Positions 43,792 through 62,550 of a DNA stretch of 64,000 nt are shown here, in pieces. Position 1 is the stretch's first letter. The number at the start of each line of letters is the position of its first letter. The position numbers and the translations under genes were made by a program. The DNA is from Candidatus Aenigmatarchaeota archaeon (lineage in GTDB: Archaea; Aenigmatarchaeota; Aenigmatarchaeia; QMZP01; QMZT01): NCBI GenBank assembly GCA_026397315.1, contig JAPLVC010000001.1:167742-231741 (forward strand). The letters are read 5' to 3'. Under the pieces are notes generated by a model. That model was not told where the DNA came from. It saw only the letters and a list, made by a program, of their open reading frames with translations, and ran no database searches.

Positions 43792-44904
43792 TTATTTTAA
43801 TTTAACAGCCCAATATGACGGATCTGACTTGGCTCCCATTTTCCTTTTCATGTCGTCTAGCCCCCTAAGCTCGGATCCTCCGAGAAGAACTTCGTCGAAA
43901 TTTCTTGCCTCCAAGTCTTCAAAGATAGTGAGATAAGTTGCTGCCGGCATTGCAGTAAAACCTCTTTTCCGTTCCTTTTTGTCTGCAATTGTTTCATTAG
44001 GATTCATTCCAAGTTCATTGAATACAAACATCGTATCTCTTAGTGTAAACGGCGTATATAAAGCGACTCTCTTGTCAGAAAGTTTCTCACCAACAAACAA
44101 TGAGACAGGCAGATTGTCCAAAAAACCTAAATGCGCAATTGTAGAATCCAATCTTGCTATTTTTGCATCTATAGAATTGTAGTGATCTTCGGGAACAGAG
44201 CCAACTTGCTTGCCTGCTTTTCTGAGCATATCAAAATGCTTTTCAACAATAATCTTTGCAATCTCATAATCTTCTTCTCCTCGATATTGTCTTAGGTGAT
44301 ATCTCAGTCCATTTCTTTTTAAAAAGTTATCAAATCTGTTGGACGCCAGTCTTAATTTTTCATTGCTTTTGATTGCATTATCCAAATTTATCAAAGAATG
44401 TGAAAAGGTTTCATCCTCTCTAGAGGCAGATGCATGCCAAGGATTATGAGATTCATCCACAGACAGAAAGCCTTTATTTAATAGTTCATCGTATTGTTCT
44501 CTGATCAAAAAACGTGCATAAACTCCTTTGCAAGGTATTTTGCAATCACTTATTGCAGCATCAGTAAATTCCATGATTTTCTTTGTTGCATTTCTACCTC
44601 TGGGTGAAACCACAAAAATATAGCCAGTAGAATCTTTTGGGTCCGATTCTTTCCTGTAGTATCCGATGGAAAATAAGGTTTCTCCGTCTTCAAAAACCAG
44701 CCCGAACGGATGATTTGAACTCCTACCTCTCGAGTTATTACCGTTTGAGTAGAGGGCAAAACCTATATTGCTTACGCCATAACTGCCATCTTTGTATCTG
44801 TCGATTGTTCCTTTTCGGGCTTCTTCTGCCGTAAAGGACCTGACACTGTCAAAATTTTCCAGTAAATATTTTTCCAGGATGTCTCTATTATTTTCGCTAC
44901 TCAT
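43792..44904 (-). CDS. Hypothetical protein, possible tandem GNAT-fold (DUF2156/FemAB-like) transferase
   Basis: C-terminal EVLLGGSELRGLDDMKRKMG resembles the Gly-rich/GL..K end of such folds; AT-rich. Confidence 0.45.
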   Translation of the reverse strand: MSSENNRDILEKYLLENFDSVRSFTAEEARKGTIDRYKDGSYGVSNIGFALYSNGNNSRGRSSNHPFGLVFEDGETLFSIGYYRKESDPKDSTGYIFVVSPRGRNATKKIMEFTDAAISDCKIPCKGVYARFLIREQYDELLNKGFLSVDESHNPWHASASREDETFSHSLINLDNAIKSNEKLRLASNRFDNFLKRNGLRYHLRQYRGEEDYEIAKIIVEKHFDMLRKAGKQVGSVPEDHYNSIDAKIARLDSTIAHLGFLDNLPVSLFVGEKLSDKRVALYTPFTLRDTMFVFNELGMNPNETIADKKERKRGFTAMPAATYLTIFEDLEARNFDEVLLGGSELRGLDDMKRKMGAKSDPSYWAVKLK

Positions 44905-44939
44905 AAATAGTTAGTAATGACATATTTTATAAAATGTTG

Positions 44940-44957
44940 TAGTAAAAACTTTTACTA
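44940..44957. promoter_or_regulatory. Inverted repeat TAGTAAAA-AC-TTTTACTA, candidate TrmB-family operator
   Basis: Lies between two divergent TATA-like elements in the 87-bp intergenic region. Confidence 0.5.
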
Positions 44958-44991
44958 AAATATTTAAAAGGATAGGAATCCATTTTATATA

Positions 44992-45723
44992 ATGAAAGAA
45001 GTTCTCAAGGAACTTGGATTGACGAACAACGAAACCGAGGTATATCTTACGCTTTTGAGAAAGGGCTCGATATCGGTTAACGAGATTGCCCAACGTTCTG
45101 GATTGCATCGGCAAGCGGTGTATGACGCGCTGGACAGGCTTCTCGAAAAGGGATTTGTAAGCTTCGTCATTAAAAACGGCAAGAAATATTTCCAGGGCAT
45201 AAAACCGGAGAAGATATCGGAATATCTCAAGGAAAAGGAGGAGAAGTTCAATTCCATTTTACCTGGGCTGATTGACCTTACAAAACTTCCGAGAGAAGAC
45301 ACGTTCGTCGAAGTGTTCAAAAGCAAAGGAATCGTCAAGACAGTTTACAGCGATATAATAAATGAATTTCAGAAAAAATCGGGGGATGTTTTGATTTCAG
45401 GAGTTGATGAAAGAAAATTCATGGAAGAAGACAAAATCGCTCTATGCCAGCACCTCAAAAAATTGCAAAAACTCAAGTGCATGGAAAGAATCATGATAAA
45501 GGATGGCGACACTTATTTTGTCAAAGGCGCTCAGACCGAATACAGATGGGTTCCCGCGGAATCGTTTAACCCGACTCCGATTTACGTTTATGGCAATAAA
45601 ATGGCGTTCATCATCTGGGGCAACCCTAATTACGCCATCATAATCGAAAACAAAAACCTTGCCGATTCGTACAGAAAGCAATTTAATATGATATGGAAAA
45701 TTTCCAAAAAAGCGGGAAAATAG
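44992..45723 (+). CDS. TrmB-family transcriptional regulator
   Basis: LGLTNNETEVYLTLL...IAQRSGLHRQAVYDALDRLLEKG; C-terminal YGNKMAFI...FNMIW. Confidence 0.92.
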   Translation: MKEVLKELGLTNNETEVYLTLLRKGSISVNEIAQRSGLHRQAVYDALDRLLEKGFVSFVIKNGKKYFQGIKPEKISEYLKEKEEKFNSILPGLIDLTKLPREDTFVEVFKSKGIVKTVYSDIINEFQKKSGDVLISGVDERKFMEEDKIALCQHLKKLQKLKCMERIMIKDGDTYFVKGAQTEYRWVPAESFNPTPIYVYGNKMAFIIWGNPNYAIIIENKNLADSYRKQFNMIWKISKKAGK

Positions 45724-45730
45724 GCGCGCC

Positions 45731-46924
45731 TTATTCGAAAATCATGGCTCTCGGTTGATTGGCCTGTTCCCTGGCGTTCTGCTCTATAGCAGCGAGCGCC
45801 GTGTCTATGTCGCTCTTCATCTTGTCGAAGCGCTTCTCGTAATTAGTGACGAAGTCGTTTATGAACTGCGTCGTGTGGGCGCGGAATACCTTTATCTCGT
45901 CCGTCTGCTTGATGAGTTCCGACGTCGACTTGTCTTCTGTGTGAGAAAGCCGCGCTATGATCTTGTCGCTCGCGTCGTTGAGTTTCGCCACCACGTTCTC
46001 ATTGAAGGCTTTCTGGTCGTCGGTCATCTTGGTTATGCGCTCGTCAGTCCATTTCTTGAGGTTGTCGATGCCAACCTCGGCGTTTTTCAGCCTGTTGTCG
46101 AAATATGAGTTCTTCTCCTTTAGCGAGTCTATCCTGCCGGCGAAGTTCTTGAGATCGACTGAAAGGTTGTCGAAGTCGTGCTTTATGTTTTCCTTCTTTA
46201 CTGCGAACATGTCCAGCTTTCCCGCTACGGACGTTTCGAATTCCTTCATCCTCGTTTTCTGGTCGGAGGCGAATTTCTCGAAGTCCTTGACGTCCTTGTT
46301 CAGCCTGTTTTCCAGGTCACGGACCTTAATCAGCTCGCTGTTCATCTCCTTTTCGATGCTGCCTATCTTCTCGTTTATCACGTTCTTCAGAGCCTCGTTC
46401 TTGCCCGCGAGCTCGTAGAGCGACTTGTTCAGGGAATTGATGTTACTGGTCAGCGACGCGATTTTCTTATCATACTCGCCGTTTCTCTCCATCACTTTCC
46501 GGGCGTTTTCCATGACCAGTTTCGAGTCTTTCTGGTTCTTGTCTATCATGTCCTTTGACTGCGCCATGAGCGTTGCGCTTATGGCTTTCGCCCTTTCCGT
46601 GAGCTGCGAATTGAGCTCGCGCGTCTCCAGCTTGACGTCTTCTTCGAGCTTCATTCTCATTGCGGCCTGGCGGCTTTCCAGGGACGCTATCGACTTCTCG
46701 AGGGATATCATGAAAGAGCGGATTGACGAGAGTTTCTCGTCCTTAGTTTCCGACTTGCCCGTCATGCTCGCGAGCTCGTTCTTGAGGAACTCTATGTCGC
46801 TGGTGTTCTTGTCAGTCGTCTTTTTCAGCTGCTCCACGAGGTATTCGTGCTTCTCGTGAAGCTCTTCCTTCTCCCGCTTGATTTCGTTTATCCTTTCCTT
46901 TATTTTGTCCAGTTTTTCGTTCAT
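45731..46924 (-). CDS. Coiled-coil protein (397 aa)
   Basis: All-helical K/E/D-rich heptads; ATGA overlap with the upstream gene. Confidence 0.85.
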   Translation of the reverse strand: MNEKLDKIKERINEIKREKEELHEKHEYLVEQLKKTTDKNTSDIEFLKNELASMTGKSETKDEKLSSIRSFMISLEKSIASLESRQAAMRMKLEEDVKLETRELNSQLTERAKAISATLMAQSKDMIDKNQKDSKLVMENARKVMERNGEYDKKIASLTSNINSLNKSLYELAGKNEALKNVINEKIGSIEKEMNSELIKVRDLENRLNKDVKDFEKFASDQKTRMKEFETSVAGKLDMFAVKKENIKHDFDNLSVDLKNFAGRIDSLKEKNSYFDNRLKNAEVGIDNLKKWTDERITKMTDDQKAFNENVVAKLNDASDKIIARLSHTEDKSTSELIKQTDEIKVFRAHTTQFINDFVTNYEKRFDKMKSDIDTALAAIEQNAREQANQPRAMIFE

Positions 46925-49900
46925 GATTCCACGTGCTTAAGAAGCTCGTCGAGTTCCGCTTCCTTTTCCTTCTTCGTTCTCGAAACATGTTCGGAAACCG
47001 CGCCGATCTTTTTCTCGACGTCGGCCATCCTGGCTCCGATTATCTGCTCCTGCGTGCGCAGGCGCTTCTCCATTTCCTTGAGGAAGTTGTTCATCCTGGC
47101 CATGTTGTTTTCGTCCAGCGTCCTGCCCAGCGATTTGACGTCGTCGAGGACTAGAGTCCTGGCCTTTTTGACGGTGTATATGTCCTCTTTCATACCATCG
47201 ATTTTTTCGCTGAGTCTGCCCACTTTTTCAACGGCCTTGCTGACGAAGACATGCATTTCGTCTATCTCCGTCTTGAGTGACGCTTTCGAATCCACAATGT
47301 CGCGCTTCTTGTTTTCGTTCAGCGACGCGAGTTTGCCATCGACCATCACCGTGTTTTCCTTTATTATCTCGTTCTTGAACGAGTTCTTTATTCCCGCGAA
47401 CGCGTTTATGGCGGCGTCCACGTCCTTCATCCTTTTCGTCATCTCGCCCTTTAGAATCATGAGCTCCTTGAGGTATTTGTCCGTTTCCTTGCGCCTTTGG
47501 GCCTCGCCTGTCTGGAATTTGCCCTTGAGGCCTTCGGCCAGCGCTTCCACGTCGCGCCTCGCTTTTTCCGCCTTCTCGACCGTCTCTTCCATGGAGAGCT
47601 CGAAGTCGTCCGTCTTTTCGGCGATTATCTCGTCGAACTTGTCTTTAAGCTGGCCTGTTATTTCCGCTAGGCCTTTGCTCATGGTCTTGTTGTCCGTTTC
47701 GAGCACCTTAACCCTGCTGTCGAGACCCGCCGAATATTCTCCAAATCTTGCCTTGAACTCCCTTTCTATCGCCGCCCTTGTCCTGTCTGTCTTGTCCTCT
47801 CTCTTTGCCTCGGCGGCCTCGAACTGCTTTTTGACAGCAGCCACCTCGGCCCTAGCGGCATTGAGACCGGCTGAAATGTCGTCCGTTATGGCCTTGACGG
47901 TCGTTTCAACGTCCGCCCTGAGGGCGACGACCACCTTGTCGAGTTCGCCTGTCTTCTTGCCCGTAATCTTGTCCACTTCGAGTCTGATTTTGTCGACGAC
48001 AGCGACTATGTCGCTCCTCAGCGCTTTCATGTCGATTTCCAGTGTCCTGGTTCTTGCATCCGTCTTGACTGCGAAATCGTCGAGTTTTAGTTTGAACTCC
48101 TTGTCGAGGGCGAGCTTCGCCTTCTCTGCCTTCTCGCTTCGCCTGAGCTCGCCCGCCTCGAACTCCTTGCGTATGAAAGTCGCGCTTTTCTCGTATTGCC
48201 CTTTAAGCGCGAGGACCTCGGCCTTCATTTCCTCGAAGTTTTCGAGTATCTCCGCGTTCACAATCTTGACGCGCTCCTCGAAATCCCTGCGTAAACCAGC
48301 GACGATCCTGTCCGTTTCGTCCGTCTTTTTGCCAGTGACCTTGTCAACATCAAGCCTTAGTTTGCCGACCGTCTTTTCCAGCTCCACCCTGAAGCTGGTG
48401 ATGTTAGCTTCCGCCTCGCGTATCCTGGCGTCCGTGCCTTTCATCAGTTCGGCGAGCTTGTTCTCCATCTCGTCTTTCGACGCCCCAAACCTTTCGTCTA
48501 TGCCGGCGACGATGTCCTTGACGCGTTCCTGAACGCCTGAAAGGCTTTCCGTGTAAATCTCTTTTTTCAGCTCCTTCTTTATCAGCGAGAATTCGGCTAT
48601 CCTCTTGTCGACGTCCTCTAGTTTCTCGTCTATCTTGCCTTTGGCCGCTATGAACTCCTTGAGCATCCTGTCTATTTCCTTCGCTTTTTTGACCTCGCTT
48701 TTCTCGACGTCGCTCTTGAAGGTGCTTATGACCAGGCCCACGTCCTTTTCCATCGCCTTCATGTCGAGGACGAGCGACTTTACTTCCTTGCCGAATTCCT
48801 TGGTCTTGGCCTGGATTATGGAGTCGAACTTCTCGCTGAGGTCGACGGTGAAATTATCAGTCGCTTTCATGAGCGAGGTTATCTCGTCCTCGGCCGCTTT
48901 GAGCCTGTTATCAGTTTTACCCTCGAAGGCTGCGAAGCGGCTGTCGACGTCTTTCTGAAGCGTTTTTGAATATGCCGCCGCTTCCCTGTCTTTGACGACG
49001 TCGCGCTTATCGAACTCCTTTTGCAGGAACTCTATCTTTTTGTCCGTCTCTGCTTTCAGGTTGGTGACAGTTGCCTGGAAGCCTGTGTTGAACTCGTCGA
49101 AATCGCTTTCCAGCGACGCTATCTTGTCCACGAGGCCGTCCTCGACCAGCTCGAACTTCTTTTCCATCTCCTCGAATATGGCCTGCGTCTTCTCGTGAAC
49201 GCCTGCAAGGCTTTCCTTGACTATCTGCTTGCGCAGCGTGTCGGCCATTTTGGAGAATTTGTCAAGCTCGAGCGATACTTCGCTTATTTTCTCGTCCACT
49301 TCGCCCTTAACAACCATGAATTCTTTGATAACCTTGTCAATGTCCTTCTGCCTCTTTATCTCGCTCTTGTCAAACGCCTTTCCCAGCAGGTCGACGGTCT
49401 TGGAAAGCTCGGCCTTGTTGTTGTCGACGTTCCTAGATATGTCGTCTATCTGGGCGTTGAGGGCGTCCGTCTCGGCCTCGACTTTCTTGGTCATGAGAGC
49501 CTGCATGGACGCGAAGCCGGTCTCTATCTTCTTCTCCCGCCTCTCCTCGCCCAGCTCGACTTTCCTGTCTATTGTCCCTATGAGCTTCTCTGCCTCTTTT
49601 TTCGAGGTCAGCAGTTCCGTTCTGAGCGCGCCGAGGTTCGCATCCCATGCGGCAGCCGAATCTTGCACCTGCTTGTCAACCTTCGCCTTCATCTGTGTTA
49701 TGAGAACATCAAATTCCTTCGTCTTGGCCGCCGTGAAGTCGCGGGTCTCGACCTTCGCCCGGCCGAGCGTTTTCTCAAGATCGACCCTGAACTTGCTCAG
49801 CTCTTTCTCCGAGTCCATCGTCTTCTTTTCGACGTCCTCTTTTACCTGGTCTATGCTGCCGCCCATGTCGTCCATCCTGGCATAAATCTGGGCGGTCTCT

Positions 49901-51084
49901 GTTTCCAGCCGTTTGGTAAGGGAAGCGTTGAACTGAACCAGCGACGAGGCGAGAGTCTTCTCCCGTCGTTCCTCTCCGGACTCTATTTTCCTGTCTACTA
50001 GCGATATCAGCTGCTCCATTTCCTTTTTCGTTTCAAGCAGCTCGGACCTTAGCGTCCCGAGATTCTTGTTCCACTGGTATGCGGTCGCTTCAGTCTGGAC
50101 ATTCATCTTCTTCGTAAGCTCGACAAGAAGAGTATCGAATTCTTTCGATTTCGACGCGACGAAGTCGCGGGTATCGACTTTAGCCTTGCCCAGCGTCTTT
50201 TCCAGATCTATCCTGAACCTGTTCAAATCGCCTTGCGCGTCGACCACTTTTTTCTGCAGGTCATCGGAAAGGCTGGCGAACCTCTCCTCGAGACCCGCTG
50301 AAAGCATCTCTAGCGACTTGGACATCTCCTTGCTTTTCTTGATGTCGAGGCTCTCTATCGTTTTTTCCATGGCGATCATGGATCTGGCGAAATCAGTCTT
50401 CGTTTTGTCTAGCTCCGCAGTCGCCTCGGCCAGCGCGTCGCCGAGCTCCTTGGCCTTCTTGATGTCTACCTTCTCCATCTCGTTGTAAAGCGCGTTTGAC
50501 TGGCGCTCGAATTCTTTCTTGAAGTTGCCTATCGAATTCGCGACGCCCAGCTTCAGCACGCTGAACTCGTCCTCGATTTTGCGGGTGTCCTCGCCGAATT
50601 TCGCCTTTATCTCCTCGACCTTTTCCCCCAGCTCCTCGGAGCCGAAAGTCTGGACCGTCGAGATGCGCCTGGTAATTTCATCGTGACTCTTCTTCACCTG
50701 GTCCAGCTTGACAGAAATGGTGACCTGCTTTTCCTCGGCCTGCAGCATGTCCTTCTTGAAGCTGCCTATGATAACCTCGAACTCGTTCATCCGCTTTAGC
50801 GACGCGCTTATGTTCTTCTCGTATTCCCTGGTCCTCATGGCGAGGGCTTCGAATTCTTCTATCTTGGCCTTGATAGGTTTGACATTCTGCTCAACAAATT
50901 CAGTAAGGCGCTTGCCCGACTCCTCGTAAAGCACGCCGGCCTGCTTGAGCTTTTCAATCAGAAAGCGGTTCCTCTCCTCAAGATATTTCTTCTCGTTTTC
51001 AAGTTCCGTGATGAACCTCTTCTTTTCCAGGGTTTCCTTCTTGAGGCTCCTCATCACTTGCTCGAGTTCGGTTAGCTCGCTCAT
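46921..51084 (-). CDS. Giant repetitive coiled-coil protein (1387 aa)
   Basis: Nearly Pro-free helical sequence with internal repeats; no Walker motifs; ATGA overlaps at both ends. Confidence 0.88.
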   Translation of the reverse strand: MSELTELEQVMRSLKKETLEKKRFITELENEKKYLEERNRFLIEKLKQAGVLYEESGKRLTEFVEQNVKPIKAKIEEFEALAMRTREYEKNISASLKRMNEFEVIIGSFKKDMLQAEEKQVTISVKLDQVKKSHDEITRRISTVQTFGSEELGEKVEEIKAKFGEDTRKIEDEFSVLKLGVANSIGNFKKEFERQSNALYNEMEKVDIKKAKELGDALAEATAELDKTKTDFARSMIAMEKTIESLDIKKSKEMSKSLEMLSAGLEERFASLSDDLQKKVVDAQGDLNRFRIDLEKTLGKAKVDTRDFVASKSKEFDTLLVELTKKMNVQTEATAYQWNKNLGTLRSELLETKKEMEQLISLVDRKIESGEERREKTLASSLVQFNASLTKRLETETAQIYARMDDMGGSIDQVKEDVEKKTMDSEKELSKFRVDLEKTLGRAKVETRDFTAAKTKEFDVLITQMKAKVDKQVQDSAAAWDANLGALRTELLTSKKEAEKLIGTIDRKVELGEERREKKIETGFASMQALMTKKVEAETDALNAQIDDISRNVDNNKAELSKTVDLLGKAFDKSEIKRQKDIDKVIKEFMVVKGEVDEKISEVSLELDKFSKMADTLRKQIVKESLAGVHEKTQAIFEEMEKKFELVEDGLVDKIASLESDFDEFNTGFQATVTNLKAETDKKIEFLQKEFDKRDVVKDREAAAYSKTLQKDVDSRFAAFEGKTDNRLKAAEDEITSLMKATDNFTVDLSEKFDSIIQAKTKEFGKEVKSLVLDMKAMEKDVGLVISTFKSDVEKSEVKKAKEIDRMLKEFIAAKGKIDEKLEDVDKRIAEFSLIKKELKKEIYTESLSGVQERVKDIVAGIDERFGASKDEMENKLAELMKGTDARIREAEANITSFRVELEKTVGKLRLDVDKVTGKKTDETDRIVAGLRRDFEERVKIVNAEILENFEEMKAEVLALKGQYEKSATFIRKEFEAGELRRSEKAEKAKLALDKEFKLKLDDFAVKTDARTRTLEIDMKALRSDIVAVVDKIRLEVDKITGKKTGELDKVVVALRADVETTVKAITDDISAGLNAARAEVAAVKKQFEAAEAKREDKTDRTRAAIEREFKARFGEYSAGLDSRVKVLETDNKTMSKGLAEITGQLKDKFDEIIAEKTDDFELSMEETVEKAEKARRDVEALAEGLKGKFQTGEAQRRKETDKYLKELMILKGEMTKRMKDVDAAINAFAGIKNSFKNEIIKENTVMVDGKLASLNENKKRDIVDSKASLKTEIDEMHVFVSKAVEKVGRLSEKIDGMKEDIYTVKKARTLVLDDVKSLGRTLDENNMARMNNFLKEMEKRLRTQEQIIGARMADVEKKIGAVSEHVSRTKKEKEAELDELLKHVES

Positions 51085-53018
51085 TCGCTTTTCAACTCTT
51101 TAAGAAGTATATTTATCTTGTCCCTCTGCCTTCGGTTCTCATCCTCGAATTTCTTCCTGTCGGCAAACGTCTGTTTAACAATGGTATTGAACTCGTTGAG
51201 AGTCTCGTCGAGCTTGCTGCCCGCAGCTAACAAACGTTTGTCCATATCCTTCTGGCGGAGCTCTATCGCCTTCGTCCATTCAGCGAGCGAATTTAGGGAT
51301 TTGCGCATCTCGGCGAGCTCGCTCACATTCCCTTTAAGGTCCTCGTGACGAGTCTTGAGTTTCTCGAGCTTCGCATCCGTCTTGGCCATCTCGTTCTTCA
51401 GCAGCGTGAGCGTCGGGTTTATCACGTTCTGGAACTGGACGAACTCCGCCTCGAAATCCTCGAACCTGTCGTTCGTCCCCTTGGTGAACTTGGCAATATC
51501 CGTGTCCATGTCCTTGAGACGCGGGCCGGATATGGTGGTGAACATGTCCTTGGCGCGCTCCTGCAGCTCCTTCTGGAACTCGGCCTGGTTGACTTTTATC
51601 TTCTCCACCCTGTCGTTCGTCTTCTCTATCCCCTCTTTCATCAGGGTGAGCGTCGGGTTGACGACGTTCTGGAACTGGACGAACTTGGAGAGCATGTCGT
51701 TGACCTTCGCCCTTGATACGGCGAGGTGCTTCTCCGTCCTGTCTTCAATCTCGAGAATCTTTTCCTCGGTCAAGTCGTCGAAATAGTCCTTGGTCTTGGC
51801 CTCGAGTTTTGCGGTGAACGCCTTGTCGAACTTGTCTATCCTGTCGTTTATGATGTCCGCCTTCTTCTGCAGCACGGCCTCCAGCTTGTTGACAAGCGCT
51901 ATCAGATTCGCTTCCTTTTCCTTGAGCTTGTCGTCCAGCCTGTCCTTCTTCGTCTGCAGGTCGGATATGTAGTCCCCGAACTTGTAAAGCGTCTTTATCT
52001 CGGTCTTGAAGTAATTGACTTCGTCGAAAAGCCTCTTGATGTTCTCGGCGCCCTTTTCTATGCCGTCCTTGACGCTTTTGATGTCCTCGAAGACCGGCGT
52101 GAGTTCCTTGCCGAGCTTCTTCTCTATCTCGTTCGGTATGATTTCACCGGTTATCTCGTCAGCGGAAAAAATGAATTTCTTGAGCTTCTCTATGTTGCCT
52201 GGGCCCATGCGTTCGATGAGGCCTTCGAGCTTCTCCTCGAATGTAGGGAAGCGTTCGAGGACCTTAATCTGCTCCTTTATCCTCGTTATCCTGGTGTCCA
52301 TCTCGTCCTTGAGCTCATGGACGCTTTTCTCGACGTCCTTCACGCTGCTCCTCATCTCGAGCAGGTCGTTCTTTATGTCGACGCGGCCGCCGAAGACTGA
52401 AAGGCCTTTCGAGACCTCTTCCTCTTTTCTCGGCTGGTCCATCCTCTCGACGAGCTTCTTTATCTCGTCCTGCAGGTCCACCATTTTCTTCGACGTCTCT
52501 GCCTGGACGTTGTCTATCATGTCCTTGACCTTGCTGCCCATCTTCTCCGGTTTCTCTGCCTTCGCCAGCTCCTCCATCTTCGTTCCCATGGCTGTGATGG
52601 CGCTGTGGACGTCCTTCATCTGGTCCTGCATCTGGCTTTTCATCCTGTTTTCGGCGTCTTTCATTTTAGACTCGACGTCGACTGACTGCTTTTCATTATC
52701 TTCTTCAGGCATATTTGACACCTTCTCAATTATTTCAGCAAGGCTTCTTGATTTTTCGCGCTCGTGCTCCAGTTCTTCTCTCAACTCATGCGCATCATCA
52801 TTATGCTTTTTCTTCTTCGGTTTCTCGTCTTCTTCGGATTCTTCCGGTTGTGCCGGGCTTTCGGCGCTATCGTCCGTCTCGTCGTGCGTCTCGTCGTGCG
52901 TCTCTTCCGAAGACTCTGTATCAAAATCGCTTTCAGGCGTGGCTTCGCCCTCGCCGCCTTCGGCGGCTTTCCCCAGCGCCTCCATGCCTTCGAATTCCTC
53001 ATTTTTCTTCTTGGACAT
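51081..53018 (-). CDS. Coiled-coil protein (645 aa) with acidic disordered N-terminus
   Basis: E/D-rich head; repeated FVQFQNVxNPTLTL. Confidence 0.88.
   Translation of the reverse strand: MSKKKNEEFEGMEALGKAAEGGEGEATPESDFDTESSEETHDETHDETDDSAESPAQPEESEEDEKPKKKKHNDDAHELREELEHEREKSRSLAEIIEKVSNMPEEDNEKQSVDVESKMKDAENRMKSQMQDQMKDVHSAITAMGTKMEELAKAEKPEKMGSKVKDMIDNVQAETSKKMVDLQDEIKKLVERMDQPRKEEEVSKGLSVFGGRVDIKNDLLEMRSSVKDVEKSVHELKDEMDTRITRIKEQIKVLERFPTFEEKLEGLIERMGPGNIEKLKKFIFSADEITGEIIPNEIEKKLGKELTPVFEDIKSVKDGIEKGAENIKRLFDEVNYFKTEIKTLYKFGDYISDLQTKKDRLDDKLKEKEANLIALVNKLEAVLQKKADIINDRIDKFDKAFTAKLEAKTKDYFDDLTEEKILEIEDRTEKHLAVSRAKVNDMLSKFVQFQNVVNPTLTLMKEGIEKTNDRVEKIKVNQAEFQKELQERAKDMFTTISGPRLKDMDTDIAKFTKGTNDRFEDFEAEFVQFQNVINPTLTLLKNEMAKTDAKLEKLKTRHEDLKGNVSELAEMRKSLNSLAEWTKAIELRQKDMDKRLLAAGSKLDETLNEFNTIVKQTFADRKKFEDENRRQRDKINILLKELKSE
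51406..51685. repeat. Intragenic direct repeat (about 40 bp, 240-bp period)
   Basis: GTGAGCGTCGGGTT...ACGTTCTGGAACTGGACGAACT at 51406-51445 and 51646-51685. Confidence 0.85.
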
Positions 53019-53037
53019 TCATAACCCCCAGGACAAG

Positions 53038-53304
53038 CTAGCCCAAATCCTCGATCAGCTTCTCTACGACGCTCTCGTTTTTCCGGACCTTCTTTTCAAG
53101 TTCTGCAATCCTTGAATTAATGTCCCCGAACCTCATCTCAAGCTCTTTGTTCGGGTCCGTGCCCAGATCTTCGAGGTCGCGCTTGAGTTTTTCGGGGATG
53201 AATTCCGGTTTTTCCCTCTTTCCCGTATATTTTATTCTATATATCTGATATAATAAAAAGCAAATCACGGCCAGCAATACCACTACCGTTATTTCATACA
53301 GCAT
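53038..53304 (-). CDS. Small protein with N-terminal TM helix and short coiled coil
   Basis: ITVVVLLAVICFLLYQIY followed by basic residues and heptads. Confidence 0.8.
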   Translation of the reverse strand: MLYEITVVVLLAVICFLLYQIYRIKYTGKREKPEFIPEKLKRDLEDLGTDPNKELEMRFGDINSRIAELEKKVRKNESVVEKLIEDLG

Positions 53305-53332
53305 ATAGATAATTTCTCCCAGTTTCTATAAA

Positions 53333-54115
53333 TTATTTCTCGGTGCGTTTTGGCCTGAAGAATTCGAGAATTCCGGAGAACATGCCCTTCGGCTCGATGT
53401 ATTCTTCGCCCACTATCTTGGCCGCGAGCCTTACGAATTCCTTGCTCGATGGCGAATTGGGCGAGAAAAGGACGACTGGCATCTTGAGCGCCAGGCTGCG
53501 TAGCACGTTTTTGTCCATGGGTATCGTGGATATCACGGGCAGCTCTATAAGCTCCTCGACTTCCTTGTTCGTGAGCTCGTATTTGTCCTTGCCCACCATG
53601 TTGAGCACGACGCCGAGCGACTTGACGCCCATCTCATTCGCCACCTGGTGACATTTTATGATGTCCATAGTTGATGGAACGAAAGGTGTGTTGACAAACA
53701 CGACCTCGTCCGCTGCTTTGACTGTCGCCATCGCTTCTCTTCCAAGGCCGGGCGCAGCGTCGAGAAGTATGATGTCCGCCTTGCCGAACAGCTTCTTTAT
53801 CGTGCTCTTCAGCTTGGCTATGTCCACCCCCTTTAAATCGCTGAACGAGAGCGACGCAGGGATGACGCGCAGGCCGTGTATGTGATACTGGTATATCGCA
53901 TCGTCAATGTGCGCGTCGCCTGTGAGAACCTGGTTAAGCGTGACCGGCGTGTAATAAAGGCCGAGGTAAAGGCCGAGATGCGACGTCGATATGTTGCAGT
54001 CGATGACAATGACGTCTTTCTTGAACTTCTGGGCGATGACCGAACCGAGATTCGCCACAACAGTGGTCTTGCCGACCCCGCCCTTGCCTGAGATAATGCC
54101 TATTACCCTTGTCAT
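53333..54115 (-). CDS. minD: MinD-family ATPase
   Basis: Deviant Walker A SGKGGVGKTT, LLDAAPGLG, GVVLNMV; C-terminal amphipathic helix GMFSGILEFF. Confidence 0.93.
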   Translation of the reverse strand: MTRVIGIISGKGGVGKTTVVANLGSVIAQKFKKDVIVIDCNISTSHLGLYLGLYYTPVTLNQVLTGDAHIDDAIYQYHIHGLRVIPASLSFSDLKGVDIAKLKSTIKKLFGKADIILLDAAPGLGREAMATVKAADEVVFVNTPFVPSTMDIIKCHQVANEMGVKSLGVVLNMVGKDKYELTNKEVEELIELPVISTIPMDKNVLRSLALKMPVVLFSPNSPSSKEFVRLAAKIVGEEYIEPKGMFSGILEFFRPKRTEK

Positions 54116-54183
54116 GCTACCCTCTGCGTATACCTTGTTTTTATTTCTTAAATTCTTGCTTTTGCGCTAGCGCCTCTGCAGGC

Positions 54184-54840
54184 TTACCACTTCAGCGCGC
54201 ACAGCATCCTGGAAAGCTCGTTCTCATCCTTCACCAACACAGGGAAATCTATCGCTTTTCTGAGTTGTCCGTCTATCGCTCGCATGTAGTTCAGCAGGTC
54301 GCGCTCAGTCGCTAGCGCAATCGACGTGGAAATCATGCGGAGGACGACGTCTGCCTCGTATTTCTTGCAGAACATCCTGAGATTAGAGAAAAGCACGTAA
54401 AGGAATATGTCCACGAATACCTGCGGCCCGTATTTGCCCACCAGCTCCTTGTCGTTCCTGTAGAGAATTTTGAGATTTTTGACATCGAAAAACACGGAGC
54501 GGTATTTCTCCATGAATTTCTGCACTGCCGCCCATTTCGTCCTCAGCAGGAAGTCGGGAAGCCAGTCGCCAGCGCCGCTGGCCGGATATTTCTGCAGTAT
54601 GTAGCCCGGGACCCACTTGAATTCGGCTTTCAACCGTTTGCCCGTTTTGGTTATGTAGTTGTCCCTTATCATGGACCTGAAGAGCGGGCCTTTAAGCCCG
54701 ACCTCGTCGTGGTAGAGGTAATTGGTCTTCACGTCCCACGTCGTCTGTATCTCGAAAAGCGAGAGTCCCTTCTCGCTGCCGCAGTTTATCCATATGAGCC
54801 AGAAATTTTTGTAGTCCGTTATCCTCTGTTTCGTTTTCAT
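54184..54840 (-). CDS. Hypothetical protein leading the minD operon, possible N-terminal winged helix
   Basis: 218-aa ORF with TATA-like TATTTATATA about 30 nt upstream; LSLFEIQTTWDVKTNYLY segment. Confidence 0.7.
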   Translation of the reverse strand: MKTKQRITDYKNFWLIWINCGSEKGLSLFEIQTTWDVKTNYLYHDEVGLKGPLFRSMIRDNYITKTGKRLKAEFKWVPGYILQKYPASGAGDWLPDFLLRTKWAAVQKFMEKYRSVFFDVKNLKILYRNDKELVGKYGPQVFVDIFLYVLFSNLRMFCKKYEADVVLRMISTSIALATERDLLNYMRAIDGQLRKAIDFPVLVKDENELSRMLCALKW

Positions 54841-55003
54841 TTCATCACAATGTAAAATTGCCCCGATACTTATATAAATATACTATTCTTGAGGCGTTAT
54901 AAAATACCCACCCCCCGTTCCGGAACATTAACCGTTTGTTATGCCGCGAAAAAAATGACTAAAGATTTTATACAAATATACTATTTATAAAAACACGCTA
55001 ACT

Positions 55004-58000: not shown

Positions 58001-60958
58001 AACCGTAAGATTGATGTGGGACGTGACCGTTATGTTAAGCATCGTGCTGTTGGAGTTTTTGCCGCTTTCGGGGTCCTCCCACTCTATCGAGACGTTGGCC
58101 GTGTAATTGCCGGAGTGCGTCGTGGGCAGAACCGTGAAAAGTATGGTAGTCGTGCAGCCCAGCGCTTTGCCGATGTTGCCGCACAAATATGCTGTTTCGT
58201 TGGCTGTTATGTTCGCGGATGACAAATTGATTTTTATGGTGGCGTTATACGCCGTCGAGTTGCCTATATTCGTCGTGTTTACTGCCAGCGAGAAGTTCTG
58301 CCCGTTGTACCAGGAAACGTTTTCGGCTGTGAAGTTGTATTTGTCGAGAGCGATGGTCATGTTGGTCCCGGCGACTGCGATGGTCACGTTTATGATGCGA
58401 TGACCAGCATTCGCTGTTGTCACGTTTATGGTGCCGTTATATTCTCCCGACGTTATGTCGGTGCTCGAGTTGACCCATATCTCCACGTTCTGCGAGACGC
58501 CGACTCCGATGGAAGTCGAGTTGTAAGGCACGAAAAGGAACGTCAGGTTCTCCGGGAAGCCCAGCAGGGTGAAATTGACGTTCTGCAGCGGAACGTTACC
58601 CAAGGCGTCGACGGTGAAATTGTCTATGTTTTTCGGCGGCCTGCCCGATGCTATTATGCCGAGCACGAAATTCTTGGGCACGTTCATCAGCGGGTTGGTA
58701 AGGACGGATATGTTTATCGCGGAACTGTTGAAACCAGGCAACGCGTTGGAATTGCGCCAGCGCACGCTTATGTTGGCCGTGTAATTCGCCGGCGGCGTTG
58801 CGCCGAGCACGATTATCTGGAAGGTTTTCGTGCAGTTCTTGGTGAGCAGGAGGTCGCCGCAAAAAGCGACGGTTGTGTTGGCCGTTATGTTGGGGCTCGA
58901 GAAGTTGAGCGTTATGTTCAGGTCGTAGGCGCTGCCGTTCGCTATGTTCTTGACCATGACGGAAATGTTGAAGATCTGGTTGGAATACGACGTCACGTTG
59001 TCCGCGACGAGGCTGTATGTGTCCGACGTGATGCTCACGTTCGTATCGTATGTCTCGCACGTGAACTCGCCGAACGCGTATCCCGTGTTGTTGTTGCGCG
59101 CCACGTTGCATGACAATGTGAACAGGTCGGCATAAGACGGCGCCGCGAACCAGAGGCGATAAGTTCCGTTGCCCAGGTCGCTTATGTTCTGCTGCGGCAC
59201 TTCGGTCGAGGCGAACGTGCAGTTGATCGTGGCGTTGGCAATCCACCTGTCCTGCCTGAAGTTCCTGACTGAAACCGTGGCGTTTATCTGCCTGCCTGTG
59301 AAGCCTGTCGGGTTCGTTATGTTAACCGTGGCGTTGTATGTGCTGGTCACGTTGAATGGGAAAGAGCTCGTGTTCAGGGCGTAGCCGCTCTGGTTGTATG
59401 CAGTGAACGTCGTGTTCCATACGCCTGTCGCATCCGCATCGAGAATGCCGTAAATGTTGGCGAATACGCCATCGCCGGCGGCGCTGTCGTTGTGACTGCC
59501 GTCATCGTAAAGAGTTATATTAGACTGGCCTACGCCTGCCTTGTTTATGCTGGCGTTTATCTTGCCGGAAACATTGTAAAGGTCGCTCACGTTGGCCCAT
59601 ATTATGACGGTCTCGTTCCTGTTGAATATCTGGACCTGGTTCGTTGCATTGGCATAGAATTTGCCGTCCGGGAAGACTGTTCTTATCTCGCCTGCATGTG
59701 TCGTTATGTTCAGGAGCGTGATGCTCTGGTTGACGAAACCCAGGAAGTGGTCTTCCGCCCCGAGGCTGCCGCTCGCGTTGAACTGCACGACGGTTGTGTG
59801 GCTTATTGACGATCCGGCGGCTATTGTAGTTTCAGTTAGTTGAACGCCCATCATGCCGGTAGCACTGTCGAATAGCGCGAAGAAATTGGAAGTTCCCGTC
59901 TCGTTTATGTTGACAAGACCCATCCAGAATGTACCGCCATACTGGTTCGCCCAGCCATAAGAGCCTGGGTCCGCGGGATTGGACATGTTGTTATAGTAAG
60001 GGTTACCCTCAGACTCCCTGAACGTGTAAGTGAGGTTCATGCCAAGCGCGCCCGAGACTGTCGAATTCCTGGTGATGCTGTAGGTGGCGTTGTTGACAAA
60101 AATCTGCTCTATCTTAATCCAGTCGAGATAGCGGTAGAACGTGTATCTCTTTATCATGTAGCCCTCTGTCATGTTGCCGGGCTGGTTCCATTTTATCTCG
60201 TTGCCCCTCTGCTCGAAAACTATCCTGGCGGGACCGGCATATTTCAGGGTGGCGTTGTTCCTAAAGTCGAAGCCAAATACGTCGCTAGCGTTGGAAAGGC
60301 TGGAATACTCGGCCGCCTTGCCTACGGAAGGGTCGACAAGAAGTATGTCGTTATCGTGAAGCGCGTCCTGCACCTGGTAGAAGCCGGACGTGTTTTCCTC
60401 GAGCGCCGTGTTCACTCCCCAGCGGAAGAGCGTGTTGTTGACGCTGAACGACTCCATGTTGCCGTTGGCGCCGGTGTAGTTGTACGCGAGGTCGGTGGTG
60501 TATGATTTTGCCTGCTTGTTGCCGTTTTCAATCGTATCGAAATATATGTAAAAATAGCGGATATGATTCGCAACGCTGGTTCCGTTCATCGAGAACGCGG
60601 CTGTTCCCACGGCGTTTGTGCTTGCGTTGTAACCATCGCTTTTGTCGAACTGCGAAGGCACCTCGTAAAGTATGGTCCCGCTGGAATTGTATTCGACCAC
60701 GCGCGTCGAGTTCTCGTCGAACGTGCCGTAAACGCTCATGTTGTTGAGGATGCGGGTGAAGTTTATGGCGTATTCGACCGGCCAGTCGGTCCTGTTGTAA
60801 AAGGTGCTGTTTATCTCCAGGCCGACCCTGTAATGCCATCGCACGTCGTACCAGCGGTAATTATAAGACTGTGAAAATGTGCCGGAAAAGCTCACCAGCA
60901 GCATGGCCGATAATATCACTAATGCCAAAACTAATTTGCCGTGACGGATTGAACTCAC
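55004..60958 (-). CDS. Giant membrane-anchored surface glycoprotein (DUF2341-like N-domain, Ca-binding DDG module, many Ig-like domains, helical stalk, TM, short cytoplasmic tail)
   Basis: Signal peptide; WHYRVGLEI; YDDGSHNDSAAGDGVF; very many NxS/T sequons; 226-aa internal duplication; TM WLIIILVILAIVIGALLFMV; GTG start overlaps the upstream stop. Confidence 0.85.
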   Translation of the reverse strand: MSSIRHGKLVLALVILSAMLLVSFSGTFSQSYNYRWYDVRWHYRVGLEINSTFYNRTDWPVEYAINFTRILNNMSVYGTFDENSTRVVEYNSSGTILYEVPSQFDKSDGYNASTNAVGTAAFSMNGTSVANHIRYFYIYFDTIENGNKQAKSYTTDLAYNYTGANGNMESFSVNNTLFRWGVNTALEENTSGFYQVQDALHDNDILLVDPSVGKAAEYSSLSNASDVFGFDFRNNATLKYAGPARIVFEQRGNEIKWNQPGNMTEGYMIKRYTFYRYLDWIKIEQIFVNNATYSITRNSTVSGALGMNLTYTFRESEGNPYYNNMSNPADPGSYGWANQYGGTFWMGLVNINETGTSNFFALFDSATGMMGVQLTETTIAAGSSISHTTVVQFNASGSLGAEDHFLGFVNQSITLLNITTHAGEIRTVFPDGKFYANATNQVQIFNRNETVIIWANVSDLYNVSGKINASINKAGVGQSNITLYDDGSHNDSAAGDGVFANIYGILDADATGVWNTTFTAYNQSGYALNTSSFPFNVTSTYNATVNITNPTGFTGRQINATVSVRNFRQDRWIANATINCTFASTEVPQQNISDLGNGTYRLWFAAPSYADLFTLSCNVARNNNTGYAFGEFTCETYDTNVSITSDTYSLVADNVTSYSNQIFNISVMVKNIANGSAYDLNITLNFSSPNITANTTVAFCGDLLLTKNCTKTFQIIVLGATPPANYTANISVRWRNSNALPGFNSSAINISVLTNPLMNVPKNFVLGIIASGRPPKNIDNFTVDALGNVPLQNVNFTLLGFPENLTFLFVPYNSTSIGVGVSQNVEIWVNSSTDITSGEYNGTINVTTANAGHRIINVTIAVAGTNMTIALDKYNFTAENVSWYNGQNFSLAVNTTNIGNSTAYNATIKINLSSANITANETAYLCGNIGKALGCTTTILFTVLPTTHSGNYTANVSIEWEDPESGKNSNSTMLNITVTSHINLTVPTDSIVKNVTHGTQVHIGNITLNSTGNDPSETIAFAASNFSPDFTFLFIPSDVASLGGEYPGGVMVNVTAKIGTLPGLYTGLINVTSANGGYKEIAVNITVPTSRTWTLNTTYCEKVMSPEEGVACDVLVNNTGNVDINFTIIPATSSSSMLNRTWTSAVNFTVANVSNYTLFVQYNITNQTIKFYYANYTIDAIQAGSSPNYTVLQVVLNPFIKPSLSMSFTPNITEQLGETWIYVNVTDQSGAGIGYNATDSNVTVTVTRPDGVNSTVMMTFTGTASGGITKWNVSYPENPFYFLNPGIWGNTTLKGYYNVTIYAVDNRGKNNTINSSFFIYYKLFIDLNTTRYAYRGDSLEVRIKSRDAVGTPLAGANVNISFVDPNGGNKDYYFWNGRTFVTDANGDAGALYLVPTNAILGNYTFSANGTYNETSVNKMINATSSFPTEVRDASKVKAELGIPYYVYREKVMPISVFILDNGECMASEPETIDITIYYTEGYTPQTWRVLHKSNMTQNMTCFYTYNELISSSTLTGTYLAVMRVGNGDKEAWDMIPFSITTGGPYDVSINMLDTEVTRSDYADFELTLINMGGTTPDVLLEYWISGANQTWDYRSESLMINAYANRTLIRSLYVVSGQPLGQYFINAKVTYDSTQPVATANSSFLVVEGGTQPPQPPAGGPAEEGAGAGAPSLPPKIEIIKYPQELGMELDSVKYPTIEVKNSGGSKLYNVTIKISGIPSPWIQDISPKVVDSLGVGNSTIFTITLKIPPTAETKEYVGQITANSSSAKDQKSFSITLFASRAELIRWEIERLTKAVQELESDIANAQKAGKNVKDVLPYVDQIKEQIRLSEDYLEKKMYDESLSAVHTGWSILEKARYLLAQAPFTEILMETIIPPWLIIILVILAIVIGALLFMVKKMRGVFDKVFRMQVPGAAGAAKASVFVEKMKEKETFEKEEANVRRVLGLLEREFKEGLISENAYADLKRRNEEKLVAIDKKKAAFK

Positions 60959-62550
60959 CTTTTGCCAAGGATCATCTTCCTGGTCTTATCGTAAGCTTCT
61001 TTGCTTATCATGCCTTTCCTGAAGGTTTCTTCAAGGTCTTTGAGAAGCATGTCGTTCCTGTTTTTCTGGTCTTTTGTGAACACTGGCTCTTTCTTCTCTA
61101 CCTTCACCGGTTTAGCCGGTACCGGCTCTTTTATGGTCTGAGTCGCTTTAGGTGCGGCCTTGTTGTCCAGCTCCTTGAGCTTTGCGAGATTCGCATTTCT
61201 CATCTTTTCGTATTCTCCCTTCGAAATCGATTTGCTCTTGAGCTCGTCCTCTAGCGTTTTGAGCAGCATCTTTATCTCTTCTTTCTGCGATTCTCTTTCA
61301 TCCGAAGCAGCGGCTGGAGCATACGACGCGGCGGATGATATGGTTGCCTGGACGCTGGACCTGAACGACTCCAAGTCGTCTCGTGTGACGAAATACGCCG
61401 CTTTCGTGTTCAGCTCGTCCAGGTTCTTCAGCACGTCGTTGAGCATGTCGTCCACCCTGTCCTGCTTGGCGCGGTAAAGCATGAATTCTTCCATCCTCTT
61501 GCTGAGCTCGGCATACATGCCCTGAATCTTGTCTGACATCTTCTGCACGCTTCTCTGCATGTCCTGCATTTCCATGAGCTTCTCGGACGCTTCCGTCCCT
61601 ATCTTTATCACGTGTTCGAGGCTGCCGATGTTGCGGAGAAGCGTCTCGATGCGTTTGAGCATCTCGCCGAATTCCTTCGACGTCTCCTCCAGCTTGTTGA
61701 CGCGCAGGGCCTGGTTGCTTATTTCCTTGTCCCTCCTGCCAATCTCCAGCAAAAGTTTCTCAGGCTCCAGCTTGGACAACAAGTCAATCATTTTTTCCAT
61801 CTTTATTTCCTGCTCCTTCGTCGAAGCCTCCCTGCCGTAGACCATCGTCCTTACTTCTGCAAGTCCCTCGACGACGCGCTGTATCTTGTCGTCGTCAATT
61901 TTTCTGCTCTCTTTGACCGCTTCCAGCTGGGCCTTCATCTTGTCTATCTCGGCGTCGAGCTTCGCGAAGCTGTTCCTCATCTCGGTCATGTCCTTGTCCG
62001 TGACCTTTGAACCGATTTCCTCCACCATCTTCCTTATGCTGTCGGCGAGATCCATCTGCATCTTCTGCAGGTCGTCCTGGCTTATGCCGAGAGCTGCGGC
62101 TTTTTCCTTCTCCTTCTTGCCCTTCGCTTTCTCCGCCGCAGGCGGCAGCTCCTCTTCGACATCCTCAATTACGGGAATCTCGACCTTCGGCCTGACAATT
62201 TTCACGGGCTGCCGGATGGGTTTTTCCTGGACATCTTCCTCTGGGATGACAGTGGAAGCGGCTGCCTGCGCCTTGGAAATGGCCTCTATCTTTCTGTTTA
62301 TTTCATCGAGCTTCTTCTCGTTCTTGGACTTTATGTCATCATAATCCGCTTCCAGTATCGACGCTTCGCTGTAGGCGTCCTCAAGCGACGACAGCAAAGC
62401 CTGTATCTCTTCCCTCTGGTGTGTCAGTTGCTCAAGGCTTTCAGTCGGTAGCGAAGCCTGACGGATCTTGGGCTGGCTCTCGGTTTTCACAGAAATATTT
62501 TTTTTGGGCGCACTCCTTGCCCTAACCGGTTTGCCCCTTTTCCCCGCCAT
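60955..62550 (-). CDS. Soluble coiled-coil protein with three SHOCT-like helical motifs
   Basis: LEDAYSEASILEADY, LEDELKSKSISKGEY, LEETFRKGMISKEAY; long central coiled coil. Confidence 0.82.
   Translation of the reverse strand: MAGKRGKPVRARSAPKKNISVKTESQPKIRQASLPTESLEQLTHQREEIQALLSSLEDAYSEASILEADYDDIKSKNEKKLDEINRKIEAISKAQAAASTVIPEEDVQEKPIRQPVKIVRPKVEIPVIEDVEEELPPAAEKAKGKKEKEKAAALGISQDDLQKMQMDLADSIRKMVEEIGSKVTDKDMTEMRNSFAKLDAEIDKMKAQLEAVKESRKIDDDKIQRVVEGLAEVRTMVYGREASTKEQEIKMEKMIDLLSKLEPEKLLLEIGRRDKEISNQALRVNKLEETSKEFGEMLKRIETLLRNIGSLEHVIKIGTEASEKLMEMQDMQRSVQKMSDKIQGMYAELSKRMEEFMLYRAKQDRVDDMLNDVLKNLDELNTKAAYFVTRDDLESFRSSVQATISSAASYAPAAASDERESQKEEIKMLLKTLEDELKSKSISKGEYEKMRNANLAKLKELDNKAAPKATQTIKEPVPAKPVKVEKKEPVFTKDQKNRNDMLLKDLEETFRKGMISKEAYDKTRKMILGKR

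Follow-up and report, generated by a model that had tools for sequence, protein, structure and literature searches.

A conserved MinD and long-rod gene module of Aenigmatarchaeota, a candidate membrane-anchored coiled-coil scaffold

A 64-kb stretch of DNA from a metagenome-assembled genome of Candidatus Aenigmatarchaeota (DPANN; 1.05 Mb, 7 contigs, 91% complete) contains six consecutive genes that encode a MinD-family ATPase, a small membrane protein, three long helical rod proteins and a soluble protein, A218. This stretch, called the window below, is the final 64 kb of its contig, and the contig end coincides with the window end. The six genes constitute a real, conserved and undescribed gene module, a variant of the systems in which a ParA/MinD ATPase works with a scaffold. 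The favoured interpretation, to which a probability of about 0.5 is given, is that the module encodes a lineage-specific, membrane-anchored coiled-coil scaffold, organised by MinD and coupled to an envelope complex. The genes are located as follows (window coordinates):

54184-54840, minus strand: A218, 218 aa, soluble, with a predicted N-terminal winged-helix domain and a helical C-terminal domain
53333-54115, minus strand: MinD, 260 aa, archaeal MinD-family ATPase with a C-terminal amphipathic tail
53038-53304, minus strand: TM88, 88 aa, single-pass membrane protein with an N-terminal transmembrane (TM) helix
51081-53018, minus strand: CC645, 645 aa, with a Lys-rich N-terminal peptide, an acidic disordered linker, a conserved core and helices
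46921-51084, minus strand: CC1387, 1387 aa, near-continuous alpha-helical rod
45731-46924, minus strand: CC397, 397 aa, helical rod

An earlier reading made from the letters of the DNA only (the sequence-only reading) had described six co-oriented genes, and all six were found as head-to-tail open reading frames (ORFs) on the minus strand, spanning 45731-54840. Comparative evidence indicates that the ORFs are real genes, because stop-free orthologues exist in more than 50 genomes. The long plus-strand ORFs that run across the operon are antisense artefacts; the coding strand is purine-rich, with an AT skew of -0.3 to -0.42. The three rod genes had been described as joined by ATGA overlaps, and the CC645/CC1387 and CC1387/CC397 junctions both read ATGA directly in the sequence. 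The co-translation deduced from these overlaps stands in a narrower form: the proper term is translational coupling, and it concerns these two junctions only. The remaining intergenic gaps measure 68, 28 and 19 bp, and Shine-Dalgarno-like motifs (GGAGG/GGGGT-like) precede the internal starts.

The order of these genes is conserved. The 16 relatives examined first belong to two families and all have the order U531-Giant-A218-MinD-CC645-CC1387-like, in which U531 and Giant are the envelope-linked neighbours described further below. TM88 and a CC397-like gene were detected in most of the 16, and the cluster usually ends at glmS. A wider survey of 56 loci from species representatives uncovered three layouts. 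In the first, all genes are co-directional. In the second, the rods and TM88 lie upstream of A218 and are divergent from A218-MinD. In the third, a trio of HerA, U531 and Giant is inverted and placed downstream of MinD. The linkage of the cluster to the Giant surface protein, U531 and a membrane HerA-like ATPase is also conserved. Of 371 genomes of the phylum, 65 have A218 and 47 the CC645 core, mostly members of three families of one order. A218 is present in 45 of the 47 genomes with a CC645 core and lies within ~3 kb of it in 41 of these 45 (counted from two tables). At one locus with the divergent arrangement (L053:10158-14225), MinD is followed by a DUF7504/KaiC-like gene, a multi-PAS protein and a HAMP histidine kinase.

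A comparable cluster occurs outside this order. In a genome of another order, a locus (L103) found via a weaker CC645-core relative contains Giant, a 150-aa protein, MinD, a 56-aa TM protein and then charged helical proteins of 426, 630 and 641 aa, while A218 sits on another contig of the same genome. The 150-aa protein was considered as an A218 homologue and rejected (hhalign probability 0.4). Two distant MinD-rod clusters include a gene for a small, polytopic membrane protein that has a metalloprotease-like HExGH motif (L103:6565-7017 and L106:9348-9896), and in L103 this gene holds A218's position. On one metagenome contig a MinD-like gene, a small TM protein and CC447 are found together. 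Two of the weaker CC645-core relatives adjoin MinD-like genes, and two others are on contigs too short to inform. The linkage on which the sequence-only reading depended is therefore borne out by synteny, in three arrangements and in another order.

The ATPase is an archaeal MinD. It scores 238.2 bits against TIGR01969 (minD_arch, cut-off 201.75), and its closest solved chains are the archaeal MinDs 1HYQ, 1ION and 1G3Q. The deviant Walker A motif with the signature lysine (KGGxGK[ST]) is present as GKGGVGKT at residues 10-17, without variation in 19 sequences. The second Walker A' Asp is replaced: where 1HYQ, 1ION, 1G3Q and 4V03 have D-A-D or D-G-D, the cluster MinD has D39-C-N41 (window 53993-54001, codons 39-41), a departure from the canonical D-x-D. 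N41 is invariant in 19 aligned sequences of the lineage, the tail-less paralogue included. In E. coli MinD the second Walker A' Asp is required for hydrolysis (the cited variant is D40A). Slow hydrolysis is proposed here because Asn replaces this residue: by analogy N41 may slow ATP hydrolysis, and the Aenigmatarchaeota MinDs that carry Asn may be slow or switch-like ATPases.

After the conserved GEEY, MinD ends in a tail of ~20 residues that is amphipathic, with a Phe/Leu face and terminal Lys/Arg. This pattern is kept in 18 cluster-linked orthologues (hydrophobic moment, muH, 0.5-0.85). The second MinD of the genome, 41% identical to the cluster MinD, stops before the tail. By its sequence the tail is membrane-targeting-like. 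The MinD of the earlier reading is confirmed by the TIGR01969 score, and the conserved amphipathic C-terminus may be the membrane-targeting helix that it described. The same reading saw no MinC, MinE or FtsZ in the window. MinC (PF03775) and MinE (PF03776) were not found anywhere in the 91%-complete genome, in searches that gave matches in control genomes, and the FtsZ genes lie outside the window. There are four FtsZ-family genes in the 1.05-Mb genome (G000), all above the TIGR00065 cut-off:

C3:90672-91670: FtsZ-family gene
C3:53076-54029: FtsZ-family gene
C4:71556-72539: FtsZ-family gene
C1:100810-101772: FtsZ-family gene

The largest rod, CC1387, has a single proline in 1387 residues. Its large hydrophobic residues give a Fourier peak at 3.640 residues (half-height range 3.636-3.644) with a spectral power of 17.5, against a shuffle 99th percentile of 2.1, and there is essentially zero power at 3.5 or 3.667. 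Orthologues from the nearest genera have a period of 3.638-3.642, most others one of 3.56-3.65. The autocorrelation is positive at lags 7, 11, 18, 29, 40, 51, 62, 91, 102 and 142, and the hydrophobic stripe is therefore in phase along the entire chain; the 7/11-based autocorrelation persists across more than 1200 residues. Since each turn of an undistorted helix takes 3.63 residues (PMC9858780), a period of 3.64 suggests a nearly straight, almost unsupercoiled bundle, which if fully extended would reach up to ~206 nm. For comparison, a Nanoarchaeum cell is ~400 nm across (PMC6349945).

CC1387 contains internal repeats at offsets of 142, 124 and 222 aa, equal to 39.0, 34.1 and 61.0 turns. Because the duplications are close to whole turns, the hydrophobic stripe is never broken. 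Two duplicated modules are exactly the segments that have no counterpart in close orthologues, and the proteins that take the place of CC1387 in relatives are 643 to ~1770 aa long. The length of CC1387 thus varies between species by whole-turn module duplications. In one relative (L015:10169-13994, G004) two overlapping ORFs, of 1111 and 179 aa, stand in place of a single CC1387 orthologue, possibly because of a frameshift or a sequencing error near the C-terminal end.

CC397 resembles CC1387 in having one proline, near its C-terminus, and would extend up to ~59 nm. Its period is 3.570-3.574 in six close orthologues, with autocorrelation at lags 7, 11, 14, 18 and 25 and a 7+7+11 build. CC645 has a period near 3.5 (3.46-3.56 in orthologues), and prolines split it into segments. 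The three coiled coils of the sequence-only reading are accordingly long helical proteins, as it supposed, but not ordinary heptad ones, since the periods of CC1387 and CC397 are 3.64 and 3.57. The acidic disordered head that it assigned to the 645-aa protein is present: the first 75 residues contain 28 Asp/Glu and 4 Pro, and the predicted local distance difference test score (pLDDT) is ~30 there in the AlphaFold2 (AF2) model. Before this head the orthologue alignment shows a Lys-rich peptide that is conserved and includes a short motif, hydrophobic-Glu/Gly-x-Met/Leu. After the acidic linker come a conserved core (~residues 195-360) and three ~100-residue helices (AF2 secondary structure). Searched against 1.84 billion representatives, a profile of the core matched just 29 clusters at E<1e-10, and none of the ten weaker matches that were scanned reached a Pfam cut-off. 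In one genome (G304) the CC645 homologue is in two pieces 354 kb apart, an N-terminal piece adjoining A218-MinD (G304:C1:556625-557125) and a second at G304:C1:202390-203577, which suggests a rearrangement with its breakpoint inside the gene, or a misassembly.

None of the rods could be placed in a known family. The earlier reading had found no SMC/Rad50 Walker motifs in them, and indeed no Walker A motif was detected in CC645, CC1387 or CC397. SMC and Rad50 models gave 11-27 bits against cut-offs of 300-1000, and only on the coiled-coil arms. Split or headless SMC, Rad50 and ASRP were therefore rejected as identities. SMC_N proteins are encoded elsewhere in the genome. Methyl-accepting chemoreceptors were also rejected, as no MCP or HAMP Pfam model matched any of the six operon proteins at E<=0.1. 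The defence proteins ZorA, LmuB and JetC were dismissed in the same manner: the PADLOC matches (E 2e-10 to 5e-3) are confined to the coiled-coil tails or arms of the models. ZorA needs a MotA-like TM domain, and LmuB and JetC an SMC-type ATPase head, but neither a TM segment nor a Walker A occurs in the rods. ZorA models match CC1387 down to E 2e-10, only on positions of the long cytoplasmic ZorA tail, which likely reflects shared coiled-coil character and not homology. For CC397, all coiled-coil matches in Pfam and NCBIfam were sub-threshold. Across Pfam, NCBIfam and PADLOC no family reached threshold for any rod, so the known families that the earlier reading had named as a danger to its interpretation (SMC, Rad50, chemoreceptors) do not account for them. 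BLAST among the three rods gave no matches with composition correction, and without it ~20% identity that is composition-driven. No claim is therefore made that the three rods are paralogues.

The periodicity also bears on another explanation of the long helices, namely that they lie on membranes as amphipathic helices in the manner of apolipoprotein, perilipin or synuclein, or remodel membranes as PspA, Vipp1 and ESCRT-III do, with a PspC-like anchor. The period of 3.64 is near the 11/3 helix of lipid-surface proteins, CC1387 has a weak Apolipoprotein match (E 3.6e-4, 20.7 bits), and TM88 has a weak PspC match (E 0.033). A Foldseek search of the low-confidence CC645 model against the PDB gave nothing better than E=5, with Vipp1, IpaB, PspA and CHMP4-7 as the top, non-significant rows (probability <=0.07). 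All of these matches are far below threshold (the Apolipoprotein cut-off is 90 bits), and the CC1387 stripe has the wrong character. It is narrow, covering only ~3/11 positions, and consists of 49-61% Leu/Ile/Val/Met/Phe/Tyr with 4-6% Ala; it is bordered by acidic residues, with Lys on the opposite face, which is the reverse of class-A lipid-binding helices. Membrane-lying or membrane-remodelling helices are considered highly improbable.

TM88 begins with a single hydrophobic helix at residues 1-19; basic residues come next, and then a cytoplasmic part that is helical and charged. This agrees with the 88-aa protein with a TM helix and a helical remainder that had been described before. Its orthologues are 52-62% identical in close relatives and about 30-38% in others. 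Positional analogues of the same build come after MinD in the distant loci L103 and L106. TM88 is a candidate anchor for the rods.

A218 is the most constant neighbour of the cluster MinD. It matches no Pfam or NCBIfam family. Its 90 homologues are all hypothetical proteins, and those with an organism name come from Aenigmarchaeota; 56 columns are invariant in 15 orthologues. The N-terminus is basic and there is an invariant KTNYLYH motif. In the AF2 model (pLDDT 70), residues 1-77 match winged-helix regulators in the VIA wide search (Z 6-7.4, root-mean-square deviation 2-3 A over ~60-68 residues), and the N-terminal domain is accordingly modelled as a winged helix. The C-terminal half is helical and matched no fold in either Foldseek against the PDB or the VIA wide search. 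For the whole model, Foldseek against the PDB gave nothing at E<=0.001 (weak rows were PadR, GST and MukF). A predicted complex of two MinD, two ATP and A218 scored 0.00 against a mark of 0.32, which counts neither way.

Two conserved elements were found in the spacer upstream of A218:

54868-54888, minus strand: promoter-like block, TATA-like TTTATATAA, ~30 nt upstream of the A218 start codon
54908-54940, minus strand: conserved ~33-nt intergenic block between the Giant1984 gene and A218

In a DNA alignment of the Giant-A218 spacer, the 21-nt TATA-like block is near-invariant across six genomes of three genera and is probably the A218 promoter. Most columns of the ~33-nt block are invariant in the six genomes, and the flanking DNA has diverged; this block is a candidate operator or regulatory site.

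Some of these features of A218 would also suit a role in DNA segregation or tethering. A218 would then be a winged-helix centromere-binding adaptor (an analogue of ParB, SegB or HpaB), MinD a partition ATPase, and the membrane-anchored rods would tether the chromosome or space it relative to the envelope. An adaptor of the ParB/SegB/HpaB type combines a DNA-binding domain with an N-terminal peptide that contacts the ATPase; A218 has a modelled winged-helix fold (Z 6-7.4), putatively DNA-binding, and a basic N-terminus. The invariant KTNYLYH, the 33-nt block just upstream and the constancy of the A218-MinD pair, the most constant in the cluster, all fit, and there are archaeal ParA-like ATPases whose partners are novel, unrelated DNA-binding adaptors, as in HpaAB (PMC13722703). 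The ATPase, however, scores as MinD and not as ParA (49.9 bits against the ParA_partition cut-off of 180), and it bears a membrane-type tail instead of a DNA-binding surface signature. The winged-helix Z of 6-7 is modest and the fold also binds proteins. In addition, the intergenic DNA showed no array of centromere-like repeats, and in another order the cluster of Giant, MinD, anchor and rods exists without A218. A segregation role is therefore considered unlikely.

It is also conceivable that A218 does no more than regulate transcription of the operon, that the gene order is inherited synteny and that the rods are fast-evolving structural proteins unrelated to MinD function. Inertia alone would not predict a linkage that persists through three or more rearrangements and the exchange of A218 for another gene, and the ATGA overlaps and tight spacing point to co-expression. 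The CC1387 stripe stays in phase through every duplication, and the rods are therefore under selection. What speaks for the regulator is the winged-helix fold of A218 together with the candidate operator and promoter, the intergenic region that A218 and the rod genes share in the divergent arrangement, and the fast divergence of the rods (55-66% identity within the genus, compared with 84% for MinD). On balance, this explanation is distinctly unlikely.

The scaffold interpretation involves three envelope-linked genes that precede A218 and reach the contig end:

55004-60958, minus strand: Giant1984, with a signal peptide, an Asn/Thr/Ser-rich ectodomain, a C-terminal TM helix and a ~87-aa charged cytoplasmic tail
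60955-62550, minus strand: U531, soluble, 531 aa
62622-64000, minus strand: HerA/FtsK-like membrane-anchored ATPase with DUF87 and HerA_C, 5' end cut by the contig end

Giant1984 has hydrophobic segments at residues 9-27 and 1879-1897, and NPCBM_assoc is above the Pfam cut-off in it, with MG2 below. Its orthologues (31-64% identity) adjoin A218-MinD in most loci. U531 matches no Pfam family at E<=0.001 and is syntenic in relatives. By inspection, a helical motif in its N-terminal region resembles the cytoplasmic tail of Giant1984. An identity of this motif with SHOCT was not established (SHOCT_2 E 3.7; GvpG weak, E 0.03 and 0.08). The full-length HerA-like orthologue of G004 has 1087 aa, with the ATPase domain from ~residue 750. 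In the same genome, on a 1.1-Mb contig (L088, G004:C2:758000-777500), the HerA-like gene follows the genes of four more surface-type proteins (2094, 660, 505 and at least 1592 aa), so the block of envelope genes extends far beyond what the window contains. On the other side of the cluster, between CC397 and an S_layer_C/HTH gene, lies an AT-rich stretch (window 43792-45723, GC 0.40) with a TrmB-like regulator (243 aa) and a 370-aa protein of no assigned function. The pair is found in G002, neither gene in G004 and G001, and the TrmB gene alone in G014. It looks like an insertion and is outside the cluster.

In the favoured interpretation the module would work as follows. A218, MinD, TM88, CC645, CC1387 and CC397 would be made from one transcript, probably driven by the conserved promoter ahead of A218, with translational coupling at the last two junctions. 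ATP-bound MinD dimers would be held at the inner membrane face by the C-terminal amphipathic tail, and with Asn for the second Walker A' Asp they may hydrolyse ATP slowly and act as a stable landmark more than as an oscillator. TM88, oriented N-out/C-in, would be a fixed membrane attachment point. Because the periods of the rods differ (~3.5, 3.64 and 3.57), they would most likely form separate homo-oligomeric bundles, joined end to end or side by side, and not one mixed coiled coil. CC1387 would serve as a straight spacer or strut of species-specific length. The Lys-rich N-terminal peptide of CC645, on its flexible acidic linker, would contact MinD; by analogy, this is the usual form of a peptide that contacts ParA/MinD. 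A218 may be a MinD adaptor or an operon regulator. The scaffold would be coupled to the adjacent Giant surface protein through its cytoplasmic tail, to U531 and to the membrane HerA-like ATPase, and MinD would fix the site of this complex on the small cell.

Several points weigh against this interpretation. Protein-protein contacts, membrane binding, filament formation and cargo are all things that we infer, and it is only from sequence periodicity that we deduce that coiled coils form and in what oligomeric state. Confidence in the model of the CC645 monomer is low (pLDDT 59, predicted template modelling score 0.20). The modelled winged helix of A218 would suit a DNA-linked function equally well. 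The genomes compared are kin and not independent, so the co-occurrence counts overstate the support and describe the linkage rather than test it. In some lineages (L073, L076, L081, L082, L085) A218-MinD occurs without adjacent rods, and in one complete genome (G304, 742-kb chromosome CP070804.1) the cluster is split. MinD may therefore have a rod-independent role. The interpretation given by the sequence-only reading is thus partly supported; we infer the scaffold, the tether formed by TM88 and the positioning by MinD.

A bolder version, rather unlikely, joins the whole block (HerA/FtsK-like ATPase, U531, Giant, A218, MinD, TM88 and the three rods) into one trans-envelope organelle. An internal rod skeleton would keep a surface adhesin and a translocase together at one site; CC1387 would set the length of its struts and MinD its position, and the whole would be the host attachment and exchange apparatus of an ultrasmall symbiotic archaeon.

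The closest working analogues of the module are DivIVA-MinJ-MinD, PomXYZ and Scy with ParA, none of which is homologous to it. In Bacillus subtilis, a membrane adaptor (MinJ) and a coiled-coil landmark (DivIVA) bring MinD to a site on the membrane, and no oscillation is needed. The Aenigmatarchaeota cluster differs in having no MinC and a single-pass 88-aa protein in the place of the adaptor, and its rods are 5-20 times longer than DivIVA. In PomXYZ of Myxococcus xanthus, the ParA/MinD ATPase PomZ works with the coiled-coil scaffolds PomX and PomY (PMC7993993, PMC11725790). There too a ParA/MinD-family ATPase is encoded with large helical scaffold proteins, which form one large cellular assembly, and an N-terminal peptide of PomX contacts the ATPase, as the conserved Lys-rich peptide before the flexible linker of CC645 may do. 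The two systems have no sequence relationship. The matrix of PomZ is the nucleoid, whereas the cluster MinD has a membrane-type tail; the archaeal cluster has three rods, a TM anchor and a predicted winged-helix protein; and it is linked to surface-protein genes, while PomXYZ is linked to FtsZ positioning.

Scy and FilP of Streptomyces are intermediate-filament-like rods. Scy, a polarity protein, interacts with ParA (PMC3718342) and is a rod of more than 1000 residues built almost wholly of hendecads (PMC9858780). CC1387 likewise has more than 1000 residues and is a non-heptad, near-unsupercoiled rod of 7- and 11-residue units with a hendecad-type periodicity. In Scy/FilP and in the cluster alike, several rod genes are adjacent and there is a link to a ParA-family ATPase, which in Scy/FilP is a functional one. 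There is no homology between them. Proteins of the Scy/FilP type have a DivIVA-like N-terminal motif (PMC9858780), and no cluster protein matched the DivIVA Pfam model. The period of CC1387 is 3.64, not 3.67. The dimer cores of Scy/FilP are Ala-rich (PMC9858780), whereas the Leu/Ile/Val/Met core of CC1387 has 4-6% Ala, a composition that hints at a higher oligomer than a dimer. Among archaea, MinD4 of Haloferax volcanii positions the motility machinery (10.1101/2020.04.03.021790), and MinD2 was also compared (PMC11588486). These are likewise archaeal MinD-family ATPases that place envelope-associated machinery without MinC or MinE. Unlike the cluster MinD, no dedicated operon of anchor and rods is reported for them, and their cargo, the archaellum and chemosensory arrays, was not seen in the cluster.

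Literature searches found no paper on this cluster. To our knowledge, no cytoskeleton has been described in Aenigmatarchaeota, and DPANN cell biology is almost unknown. If the favoured interpretation is true, this would be the first case in archaea of a genetic link between a MinD-family ATPase and dedicated intermediate-filament-like proteins, and a defined and testable set of genes (MinD, a membrane anchor and three rods) is at hand. A 1-Mb genome can ill afford ~8 kb of coiled coil. CC1387 is also a natural ruler: its orthologues differ in length by whole helical turns, so a structure seen by cryo-electron tomography could be matched to the gene by its length. The trans-envelope organelle, if it exists, would be a means by which DPANN cells deal with their host.

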